Source: a virus (taxonomy: Duplodnaviria > Heunggongvirae > Uroviricota > Caudoviricetes). Taken from it: a DNA stretch of 64,000 nt. Shown one piece after another: positions 63,342-64,000 of the stretch. The notes under the pieces are model-generated. The model had not been told where the DNA came from. It made no database searches and saw nothing but the letters and a program-made list of their open reading frames with translations. The stretch spans positions 1 through 64,000 of IMG/VR virus record IMGVR_UViG_2617271072_000004. One strand, written 5' to 3'. Position 1 is the first letter of the stretch; each line of letters starts with the position of its first letter. A program made the translations under genes and the position numbers.

Positions 63342-63500
63342 TGGTTATCCCTCAATAAAAGTGACATATTTATTAGATTGCGGTGCCGAGTGCCTCCCGG
63401 TGACGTTAACCAGTTAACAATTAACGTCGGAATGTTTAACCATTAAGGAGGATTGTTTTAACTGTTCCGCGTGCGCTTAGCCGCATTCACCGCAACGGAA

Positions 63501-63558
63501 AGAGCATTCCTGGTGGACCTGTAGATTGGGATATGAACCCGTTACAGGAGAATGCTCT
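63501..63558 (+). ncRNA. stem-loop element 1 carrying conserved GTAGATTGGGATATGAACCCGTTAC loop motif
   Basis: Arms AGAGCATTCCTG / CAGGAGAATGCTCT; strand and function unknown. Confidence 0.3.
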
Positions 63559-63756
63559 TACCTGTTACGTGCTCCGTTTCGTGGAGCTAACGGCGGGTGA
63601 TCGGGCCGCACCAGACTGGACTTATTTCAGCGTTATGCTCATGCCAGAGAATCAAACTGTGATGGTCGGTGCTGAACTCCGACACAGGGTTGTAGCAAGC
63701 CCCGCAAAGCGCGCACTACTGTAGTTGCGGCACATCAGCCTGTGCATTCACCACAA

Positions 63757-63838
63757 TGTTGAGAACACTGGTTGTCACGCTGCAACGCAACATTTATTCG
63801 TAGATTGGGATATGACCCCGTTACTCCAGTGTTCTCAA
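63757..63838 (+). ncRNA. stem-loop element 2 carrying the same loop motif
   Basis: Perfect 14-bp arms GTTGAGAACACTGG / CCAGTGTTCTCAAC. Confidence 0.3.
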
Positions 63839-64000
63839 CGTTATAGTGCCGGTTACGGTTCCGGCCAGGCCTCTTCCTCAACGGGGTGTTCTCCATACGG
63901 ACTACCGTTTATTGGTCGTTCCTGCGGTTTATGTTGTGAAGCCAGATGCTTATCTTCTGGTTGCTTCAAAGAGCTGCACTTCATCACAACGGTAAGAGCA

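Follow-up and report, generated by a model that had tools for sequence, protein, structure and literature searches.

The 64,000-nt stretch of DNA analyzed here (IMG/VR record IMGVR_UViG_2617271072_000004, positions 1 to 64,000; hereafter the window) is part of a P1-type plasmid prophage. Near its end lie two hairpins, named M1 and M2, which belong to a real and apparently undescribed structured-RNA family in a model phage. They are folded elements of the minus strand with covarying stems, they form part of a modular array set among tRNA genes, and the DNA that encodes them lacks coding constraint. We give a probability of about one half to the reading that M1 and M2 are RNA units of this modular family in the leader of the ban operon, where they would present a conserved loop to a trans-acting partner.

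Two Hairpins with a Shared Apical Element Fold on the Minus Strand

An earlier note made from the letters of the window had reported a 25-nt motif occurring twice, each time in the loop of a hairpin whose arms differ between the copies yet stay complementary. The degenerate motif GTAGATTGGGATATGAMCCCGTTAC indeed matches exactly twice in the 64 kb, where the number expected by chance is 0.00 (100 dinucleotide shuffles), and a covariance model of this apical element finds only the same two copies in the window, with 54 and 57 bits. The position given for the first copy was right, and the second copy starts at 63800 rather than at 63799 (Table 1). The arms are as described: in M1 they are AGAGCATTCCTG (63502-63513) and CAGGAGAATGCTCT (63546-63559), with a bulge, and in M2 they form a perfect 14 bp within the 23-nt inverted repeat of the outer stem. 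The sequence GCATTCACC, said to lie ahead of both copies, does so at 63483-63491 and 63744-63752, and a third, degenerate GCATTCACC flank at the very end of the window is part of a third module, M3, that the window truncates.

Both hairpins are far more stable than expected from their composition, as none of 200 shuffles folds as well on the minus strand. M1, which carries the apical element and lacks a second inner hairpin, reaches −35.6 kcal/mol on the minus strand (z −5.9) and −28.9 kcal/mol on the plus strand (z −2.8). M2 combines a hairpin A, bearing the apical element, with a hairpin B (63774-63791, loop UUGCAG), and reaches −45.0 kcal/mol (z −6.5) and −34.9 kcal/mol (z −4.0) on the minus and plus strands, respectively, so that the minus-strand advantage of the two folds is 6.7-10 kcal/mol. 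A 635-nt segment of the leader folds at −210 kcal/mol against −184 ± 7 kcal/mol for shuffled sequence (z −3.7), and both hairpins are retained in its minimum free energy and centroid folds. In the apical element, a 7-nt loop N-U-C-A-U-A-U is closed by three G-C pairs. A stem scan of the whole window without an anchor let through too much to be of use, and we kept it out of the evidence.

To analyze covariation, we aligned 24 distinct outer stems, joining the two strands of each by an artificial GAAA loop. In this alignment, 97% of the cells are paired, a percentage inflated by the use of a stem finder to collect the stems, and compensatory double changes, which are not affected likewise, occur in 16 of the 19 pairs; at one position, U·G (13 stems) alternates with C-G (6) and U-A (5). 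These measures are reached by none of 500 shuffles, and sliding the register brings pairing to 37-48%. The helix that closes the apical element also varies, with A-U, G-C and G·U pairs (7, 6 and 6 cases) at one position and A-U, C-G and U-A pairs (8, 8 and 2 cases) at the next, giving a covariation score of 0.251 versus 0.134 after shuffling (0 of 500 shuffles reach it). Single relatives display the same behavior: a Klebsiella relative of M2 has the compensated stem GAGACCACUG/CAGUGGUCUC, and in an M1-like copy on a Salmonella plasmid, AAGAGC/GCUCUU is replaced by AAUAGC/GCUAUU. The lack of conservation that the earlier note had named as speaking against a structure was thus not observed, the element being kept in relatives.

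The strand follows from the G·U pairs. For 19 of 21 long stems (seven loci: P1, D6, Klebsiella, Salmonella and PY54-like), the minus, or RNA, strand gives the more stable fold, with a mean gain of 5.9 kcal/mol and 1-10 G·U pairs per stem. Since each G·U pair is an A·C mismatch when the complement folds, the selected fold is that of the minus strand of the window. The proposal of a selected structure therefore stands, and is sharpened to one strand by the fold energies, the G·U pairs, the covarying stems and the setting among tRNA genes in an operon.

The Apical Element Is Almost Invariant on Three Unrelated Stems

We collected apical elements by an exact-pattern scan of IMG/VR and a fuzzy search over all fetched loci. 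In the 258 occurrences, the 23-nt core UAACGGGNUCAUAUCCCAAUCUA (as RNA, UAAC-GGG-NUCAUAU-CCC-AAUC-UA) is almost invariant. Only the first base of the loop is free, being G in 129 and U in 120 cases (with the rest of the core unchanged) and A in 2, and the other 7 occurrences have one or two substitutions elsewhere. The core is found on three unrelated outer stems, those of M1, of M2 and of a third type (CUACAUUCGCCUGAGCAUCAC…/…GGUGCUCAGCCGAAUGUGG). Type 3 lies between a DNA methyltransferase gene and the holin in Yersinia phage PY54, and occurs also in IMG/VR contigs, for example in L220, where it stands between two terminator-like hairpins upstream of a methyltransferase-like open reading frame (ORF). 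M2 and type 3 share the second inner hairpin with its UUGCAG loop, absent from M1, and are therefore both three-way junctions. In 15 type-3 copies, one-sided changes left 16 cells as standard pairs (10 of them G·U) and 7 cells broken.

A scan of one genome per species gave three matching stretches, in Yersinia, in Escherichia and in one metagenome-assembled genome of the Planctomycetia; the latter scores only 29 bits with the model and equals the chance expectation for a 19-base pattern. Matches this few indicate that the element belongs to mobile elements and is not a feature of host core genomes.

M1 and M2 Belong to an Array of Exchangeable Modules

To read the minus strand beyond the window end, we used the plasmid that is identical to the end of the window (L003; window coordinate = L003 + 60399). 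The replicon holds at least five modules, ordered M5 to M1 along the leader: M5 precedes both tRNAs (tRNA-Asn and tRNA-Thr), M4 begins 2 nt past the CCA of tRNA-Thr, and M3, M2 and M1 come after it. Common to all five are a base helix, 5′-CACAAC(A)GGUAAG… / …CUUACCGUUGUG-3′ (with the variant CAACGUUGAG…/…CUCAAC(A/G)UUGUG), and a single-stranded tail, (G/A)UGAAUGC, which is GCATTCACC read on the other strand. In most units, the tail is followed by a small hairpin with the loop GGCUGA. In all five, the minus strand gives the better fold.

Further modules were sought by scanning IMG/VR with the 3′ flank and then filtering for the partner strand. Many more were obtained, and all loci taken together show about 22 distinct interiors (“cargos,” 30-100 nt) within essentially one stem. 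The array consists of exchangeable units of ∼70-140 nt. Relatives of P1 have 2-5 units, with the junctions of gain and loss falling within the shared flanks, and in P1, Klebsiella and Citrobacter elements, modules start 0-3 nt past the CCA of real tRNAs. The same architecture occurs outside P1 on a 108-kb Klebsiella plasmid, flanked by PhoH and DNA ligase genes, which is probably an SSU5-type phage-plasmid and whose modules come after tRNA-Asn and a tRNA-Ser/Sec-like gene; on a Citrobacter plasmid, where a module comes after a CAU tRNA; and on a Salmonella plasmid. Three classes of cargo contain a perfect tRNA T-arm (Table 1), where 0.019 would be expected after shuffling and none of 2000 shuffles reaches three.

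The Hairpins Lie in the Predicted ban Leader, Opposite Two Frames That Are Probably Not Genes

Over its final 1.1 kb, the window has 100% identity with E. coli H8 plasmid A (NZ_CP010173, IncY, 94 kb) and 94-99.6% identity with phage P1 isolates, and the same 1.1 kb has matches in 909 PLSDB plasmids. In the P1 reference annotation (NC_005856), the strand corresponding to the window minus strand carries, in order, the C1-controlled promoter/operator Pban, a “dicF-like region,” tRNA-Asn and tRNA-Thr; then ∼700 nt in which upl and plp are annotated on the opposite strand; and finally tciA, tciB, tciC, tRNA-Ile2(CAU), ban and dbn. The window contains the downstream portion, that is ban, the CAU tRNA (62557-62632), tciC, tciB and tciA (start at 63341, minus strand), followed by the hairpin region. 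On neither strand of 63300-64000 did we find a promoter-like or terminator-like site, nor an intrinsic terminator in the sense of a G+C-rich hairpin with a U tract. The simplest reading is therefore that the ban transcript includes the hairpin region as an untranslated internal segment and, according to the annotation, would have a ∼1.4-kb leader. The NCBI pipeline annotates no feature at the hairpin region in NZ_CP010173.

The earlier note had stated that no ORF explains 63725-64000. A frame is in fact open there: plp starts with a TTG at 63725, covers the interval and, because it runs off the window end, is missing from the window ORF list. The interval nevertheless appears to be noncoding, and the possibility that it belongs to a gene extending beyond the window is countered by the fact that plp is unlike coding sequence. 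Among 20 variants of plp, 5 are frameshifted and 4 have in-frame stops (two in one of them); in the replicon of the window, insertion of the 196-nt M3 unit replaces its last 48 residues; in P1, the frame runs antisense through M2 and M4 into tRNA-Thr; and it matches neither Pfam nor PHROG. In upl, whose start codon (63533) is the complement of the loop CAU, 6 of the 7 substitution variants are nonsynonymous and 1 variant is frameshifted. The single Pfam match of upl is far under the gathering score (13.3 vs. 27 bits), and its PHROG matches are to two families of unknown function, a circular support because the families were built from the same predicted ORFs. An intact frame, purifying selection and family support are thus lacking in upl and plp, which, on these sequence grounds, are probably not genes, and the P1 reference annotation is probably wrong at this point.

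These data bear on a coding explanation of the hairpin repeat, namely that it reflects paralogous segments (…IH(R/H)N…VDWDM(N/T)PL…) of proteins encoded by upl and plp on the plus strand. The motif does lie in the same frame in both ORFs, the spacing of the repeats differs by 18 nt, a multiple of three, and both ORFs are in the P1 annotation, with Upl matching its two PHROG families. This explanation fails to account for the upstream “paralogous” part of copy 1, which is outside any ORF with a start codon, for the origin of the upl start codon in the loop complement and for the antisense overlap of plp with tRNA-Thr. Taken with the frameshifts, the stops, the replaced plp C terminus, the mostly nonsynonymous changes in upl, the lack of a Pfam match at gathering score, of an NCBI-annotated gene and of a plus-strand promoter in 63300-64000, and the circularity of the PHROG matches, we regard its probability as close to negligible. 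The same-frame …VDWDM… repeats are best explained as a by-product.

The Apical Loop Resembles an Anticodon Arm

GGG-NUCAUAU-CCC fits an anticodon loop, having U33, CAU and a purine as base 37. Its nearest look-alike is the anticodon arm of the initiator tRNA, UCGGG-CUCAUAA-CCCGA, with which it has in common the three G-C pairs that close the CAU loop, as in tRNAfMet, as well as U33 and A37. Three G-C pairs at this place are a mark of initiator tRNAs. The sequence of the initiator tRNA gene was confirmed in 5426 of 5426 E. coli genomes, and CUCAUAA is also the loop of the CAU tRNA within the ban operon. Unlike a tRNA anticodon arm, the element has 3 bp followed by an asymmetric internal loop (AC / AAUC), and its loop position 7 is U, not A. 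Judged by sequence likeness, the resemblance to the initiator arm is a lead only. We also considered a T-loop reading of GGGUUCAUAUCCC, which was rejected, the position equivalent to T54 varying between U, G and A and the A58 position being U.

No module is called as a tRNA: with ARAGORN and the Rfam model RF00005, none has the acceptor, D, anticodon and T arms of a cloverleaf. The only call within 60000-64000 is the real tRNA at 62557-62632, and the only calls in the continuation of the replicon past the window are tRNA-Asn and tRNA-Thr. A comparison can also be made with the operator of E. coli thrS, another stem in an untranslated leader, which like the initiator arm shares with the element a 7-nt loop whose second base is U and whose sixth is a purine. 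In contrast to the thrS operator, the element is spread over unrelated downstream genes, and therefore is not a gene-specific operator; binding of a synthetase, toxin or ribosome is putative.

A Model for the Leader Modules and Its Alternatives

Based on these results, we propose that a leader transcript would run from the C1-repressed Pban through the dicF-like region, tRNA-Asn, tRNA-Thr and the modules to tciABC, tRNA-Ile2 and ban. Each unit comprises a ∼20-bp outer stem with its conserved base (CACAAC.../...GUUGUG), the tail (G/A)UGAAUGC, the small hairpin and a variable cargo. Stem and tail may serve as a scaffold and as a processing or stability signal, and each unit would perhaps be excised, in the manner of DicF and the tRNAs, from the polycistronic precursor to become a stable small RNA. 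The geometry of ∼20-bp stems with a conserved single-stranded tail is consistent with substrates of RNase III or RNase E; still, we lean slightly against the release of the units as discrete RNAs. The cargo would be the working part, and in M1 and M2, the loop of UAAC-GGG-NUCAUAU-CCC-AAUC-UA would be displayed for a trans-acting partner; this partner, like transcription from Pban, is what we infer from the data above. Owing to the likeness to the initiator arm and to the T-arms in other cargos, we favor mimicry of a tRNA part, itself less likely than not, which might act as a decoy or a binding site for a tRNA-recognizing enzyme, a toxin or the ribosome during lytic growth. Mimicry of the anticodon arm in particular is our most specific guess, and a decidedly doubtful one.

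Several observations weigh against this model. No complement of the apical element of at least 11 nt exists within the 64-kb window, which lends no positive support to the display of the loop and is neutral for a protein partner. The likeness to the initiator arm amounts to 13 of 17 identical bases with only 3 bp before the internal loop, and could be a coincidence; the processing of the units and the identity of the partner are conjecture; and the paired percentage is inflated, as said above. Three P1-like contigs of IMG/VR (L014, L015 and L157) carry natural chimeras that join the 5′ half of M2 to the 3′ half of M1 via the 25-nt element, with 279 nt deleted (including all of upl and one copy of the element) and with outer strands that are noncomplementary. 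The sequence identity between M1 and M2 could be kept in part by gene conversion and not by selection. Finally, in a CRISPR interference study, plp, upl and trnT were nonessential on laboratory E. coli and the region was dispensable for plaques (PMC10695390); this fits an accessory or host-specific role without proving it.

The main rival is a purely cis-acting role, in which the stems would protect the leader from Rho or nucleases, or offer RNase III or RNase E sites that part the tRNAs from the tci-ban mRNA. Such a role is plausible for a 1.4-kb untranslated, tRNA-bearing leader without internal promoter or terminator, the stems being ∼20 bp long, which is the stem length used by RNase III, and the tail after every stem being a possible RNase E site. 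It would also agree with the covariation of the outer stems as their sequence drifts, and with the type-3 copy, which likewise lies in an operon leader, between terminators. Yet it explains the stems and not the invariant unpaired bases: a near-invariant 23-nt element on three unrelated stems in unrelated phages is left unaccounted for, as are the perfect T-arms in the cargos, and we consider it unlikely as the whole explanation. Alternatively, the modules could be base-pairing regulatory RNAs whose 7-nt loop (UUCA, a YUNR U-turn) kisses mRNAs around the AUG (target AUAUGAA), a type of contact by which the antisense RNAs CopA and Sok work. The conserved loop does sit on a stable stem and is the complement of a start-codon context, and the neighboring STnc100/PasD family consists of Hfq-bound prophage small RNAs. 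This is very unlikely given the lack of a long complement in the window, where 9-10-mers are at chance level, the G variant of the first loop base, which violates the YUNR rule, and the absence of a terminator or Hfq-type 3′ end at the modules.

Two further explanations do without a function of the RNA for the phage. The modules might be selfish or decaying repeats, that is tRNA-derived palindromes or ones resembling miniature inverted-repeat transposable elements, spread by recombination among phage-plasmids. The variation from 2 to 5 modules among close relatives of P1, with junctions in shared flanks, the existence of chimeras, the nonessentiality of the region and conserved ends that resemble terminal inverted repeats all point that way. 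Against it, stems that differ in sequence remain complementary with G·U pairs on one strand only, which argues for selection on a folded single strand and not for inverted-repeat ends that keep their sequence; moreover, elements of the P1, PY54 and Salmonella/Klebsiella types all keep the loop, so that this too has a low probability, comparable to that of base pairing. The other possibility is a structure in DNA, single-stranded for recombination in the manner of integron attC sites, for replication priming or for packaging. Like attC sites, the modules have conserved ends, a variable center in which palindromy is kept, and cassette-like gain and loss, and folded single-stranded DNA tolerates G·T, so that the strand asymmetry alone does not exclude DNA. 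We nevertheless hold a DNA role to be remote. The ends, CACAAC ... GUUGUG(A/G), misfit the attC core (RYYYAAC ... GTTRRRY), and no integron integrase is found in the annotated flanks; the elements alternate with tRNA genes within a single transcription unit; G·U pairs and T-arms are traits of RNA, the latter making sense only as such; and replicons that differ in how they replicate and package their DNA carry the same element.

A wider form of the proposed model, which we advance as a long shot, is that P1-type, SSU5-like (as we take the Klebsiella plasmid to be) and N15/PY54-type plasmid-prophages share exchangeable cassettes of RNAs that mimic parts of the translation machinery and are released during lytic growth. 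M1 and M2 would carry an initiator-tRNA anticodon arm as cargo, M4 and others mimics of the T-arm or elbow, and a tmRNA-like tag template would be a further cargo. Set free from the leaders of early or late operons, these cargos would neutralize tRNA-targeting host defenses or toxins, or redirect initiation and ribosome rescue. VapC is an example of an anticodon nuclease that cuts tRNAfMet.

The annotation of P1, a textbook phage, places within ∼1.4 kb of the early ban operon two opposite-strand ORFs that do not look like genes. If our reading is true, the region encodes an array of structured RNAs listed in no RNA database, and the P1 reference annotation would have to be corrected. The main plasmid-prophage families of enterobacteria, which are common in clinical E. 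coli, Klebsiella and Salmonella, would share these RNAs and shuffle them, and the modular design would offer a testable route to how phages turn tRNA genes and their look-alikes against host defenses that attack tRNAs. In the literature searched, no paper was found that describes these hairpins; a P1vir RNA-seq preprint gives its results at gene level only.

Comparison with Known RNA Families

Phage noncoding RNAs with tRNA-like parts are already known; what is unusual here is a constant stem with a swappable tRNA-like interior. No Rfam 15 family covers the hairpins at E values up to 10, whether the scan is made on the end of the window, on the complete leader in the identical plasmid, on four related loci or on the 376-nt core alone. 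The only matches there are real tRNAs, a subthreshold STnc100 beside M1, and spurious microRNA and snoRNA hits; 63495-63870 alone gives the spurious microRNA and snoRNA matches and no STnc100.

The STnc100-like element (RF02076) directly follows M1 in the RNA and precedes the tciA start codon. Its score is below gathering, and the match touches only the 3′ strand of M1 and covers neither hairpin, so that the modules are not members of this family. The closing helix of the element, UGCGGUG/CACCGCA, occupies bases of the 3′ strand of the M1 stem, and its pairing and that of M1 are therefore mutually exclusive. STnc100 and its relative PasD are Hfq-bound prophage small RNAs (bioRxiv 10.64898/2026.05.13.724894). 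Like the modules, they are found in prophage operon leaders, and the “GGUGAAU plus small hairpin” that opens STnc100 comes after every module; unlike the modules, STnc100 lacks a long outer stem and a variable interior. Phage Rac-SA53 has the same ∼125-nt STnc100-like piece ahead of kilR, as do Stx and other lambdoid phages.

YrlA RNAs (RF02553), which occur in phages too, bear a tRNA-like interior on a long stem made of the 5′ and 3′ ends. Several module cargos with T-arms are similar in this respect, and in one cargo class (L044/L237), the order of T-arm, hairpin and single strand is that of the permuted tRNA-like domain of YrlA. In contrast, M1 and M2 bear an anticodon-arm-like hairpin and not a D/T elbow, T-arms being found only in other cargos. 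No module matches the YrlA model, whose sole weak match (25.6 bits, gathering 69) spans two real tRNAs, and there is no Ro/Rsr gene among the annotated neighbors of the modules. GOLLD (RF01998) and ROOL (RF03087) gave no covariance-model match at E values up to 10 or, in a further scan, up to 1. With them, and with the stable RNAs of T4 (species 1 and 2), the modules share the position of a structured noncoding RNA beside phage tRNA genes, multiple hairpins with possible loop-loop contacts and, judging from the operon position, likely expression during lytic growth; they differ from GOLLD and ROOL in being an array of exchangeable units and not one large conserved fold. DicF is released from a long precursor by RNase III or RNase E, and a dicF-like region is annotated upstream in the same P1 leader. 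The modules have no sequence or structure similarity to DicF, their processing is putative, and the Rfam DicF model does not match the P1 “dicF-like” region (L003 2900-4760) at E values up to 10.

Further Hairpins and Neighboring Genes

The small hairpin with the GGCUGA loop that stands past the M2 tail (Table 1) keeps its loop in other units while its stem covaries (GCGCA/UGCGC, GCUCA/UGAGC, UCGCA/UGCGA). Another hairpin presents the 9-nt loop AGUUCAGCA (AGAUCAGCA elsewhere), which is complementary to the GGCUGA(U) loop ∼45-85 nt upstream in the RNA. On the basis of this complementarity, the GGCUGA(U) and AGUUCAGCA loops could kiss, compacting each intermodule spacer; the GGCUGA and AGAUCAGCA loops are too invariant for covariation between them to show. 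The hairpin just upstream of M1 has its closing G-C pair changed to A-U in relatives (ACUCC...GGAGU; contexts L147 and L286), and the one that abuts the 5′ base of M2 is also seen in L220, within its type-3 unit, and on the Citrobacter plasmid. A DNA methyltransferase gene adjoins the RNA element in three settings that are otherwise unlike, for which coincidence or synteny may be the explanation.

Table 1. Features of the hairpin region and of related loci (window coordinates unless a locus is named)
Feature	Position	Strand	Description
STnc100-like element	63379..63494	−	RF02076, 42 bits vs. gathering 47, model positions 31-147 of 206
Module M1	63486..63572	−	Imperfect long hairpin; outer stem ∼63488-63513 / 63546-63570
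Apical element, copy 1	63521..63545	−	RNA GUAAC-GGG-UUCAUAU-CCC-AAUC-UAC
Hairpin upstream of M1 in the RNA	63571..63587	−	GCUCC-ACGAAAC-GGAGC
Hairpin with 9-nt loop	63665..63683	−	GUCGG-AGUUCAGCA-CCGAC; other units CCGG-AGAUCAGCA-CCGG
Small hairpin past M2 tail GGUGAAUGC	63730..63745	−	GCACA-GGCUGA-UGUGC
Module M2	63746..63851	−	Three-way junction; outer stem 63826-63848 / 63749-63771, 23 nt each
Apical element, copy 2	63800..63824	−	RNA GUAAC-GGG-GUCAUAU-CCC-AAUC-UAC
Hairpin abutting 5′ base of M2	63848..63865	−	GCCGG-AACCGUAA-CCGGC
M3, 3′ strand and tail	63977..64000	−	…UGCUCUUACCGUUGUGAUGAAGUG; full M3 in L003 at 3585-3655
T-arm cargo, M4 of the window replicon			AGGG-UUCGAAU-CCCU
T-arm cargo, second class			UAGAG-UUCGACU-CUCUA
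T-arm cargo, third class			GUCUG-UUCGAUU-CAGAC
P1 dmt	L001 4432-6530		Methyltransferase neighbor
PY54 gene 60	L292 1363-2436		Methyltransferase neighbor
ORF in L220	From 9355		Methyltransferase neighbor

Several tRNA-like genes were seen among or beside modules. An 87-nt “tRNA-Ser(UGA)” stands among the modules of phage D6 and of the Klebsiella plasmid (L085 2910-2996 and L004 2770-2856, minus strands); the Rfam tRNA-Sec model gives it 44 bits (gathering score 47), and according to the D6 annotators, tRNAscan-SE gave it no amino acid. Two tRNA-like genes with large insertions adjoin modules on the minus strands of L086 (∼418-612) and L087 (2803-2930). The one in L086 spans ∼195 nt without an ARAGORN call and has an acceptor stem GUGUAUA/UAUGCAC, a CUCAUAA loop, a T-arm CAGG-UUCGAAU-CCUG and a GCCA end. 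The one in L087, the Citrobacter plasmid, reaches 32.5 bits with the Rfam tRNA model over 128 nt, and its 3′ part, together with its downstream terminator, is overlapped by an RprA-like match (2745-2872, minus strand; 55 bits vs. a gathering score of 70).

A Transfer-Messenger RNA-Like Tag Element in the Same Leader

About 800 nt past the window end, just after the terminator of the “dicF-like” region, the same leader contains an element resembling the resume and tag frame of transfer-messenger RNA (tmRNA; L003 4405-4440, minus strand). The Rfam tmRNA_permuted model scores it with 26 bits (E 0.007), and ARAGORN recognizes the resume consensus only at the relaxed threshold −ps80, with no call at default. 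A tRNA-like domain with G3·U70, T-arm and 3′ ACCA was not found, the −ps80 proposal having G3-C70 and no CCA. Extended homology of the leader to E. coli ssrA was also considered and rejected, only 8-11-mers at chance level being shared, and P1 is absent from a list of phages with ssrA (PMC4131195). By sequence comparison, the tmRNA resemblance is thus confined to the resume and tag region. There, a tmRNA-like resume codon opens a tag frame that ends in a hydrophobic-AA degron (GCA AAC GAU GAU CUG AUG AUG GUA GCG GCC UAA, or ANDDLMMVAA*). The tag-like element is present also in L001, L004, L085, L086 and L162, and five tag variants, among them ANDNLMMVAA, ANDDLMMAAA, ANDNQYLAVA (Klebsiella/Salmonella plasmids) and ANDDVVLMAA, occur across P1-, Klebsiella- and L162-type loci, each with 10 codons and UAA, synonymous changes included.

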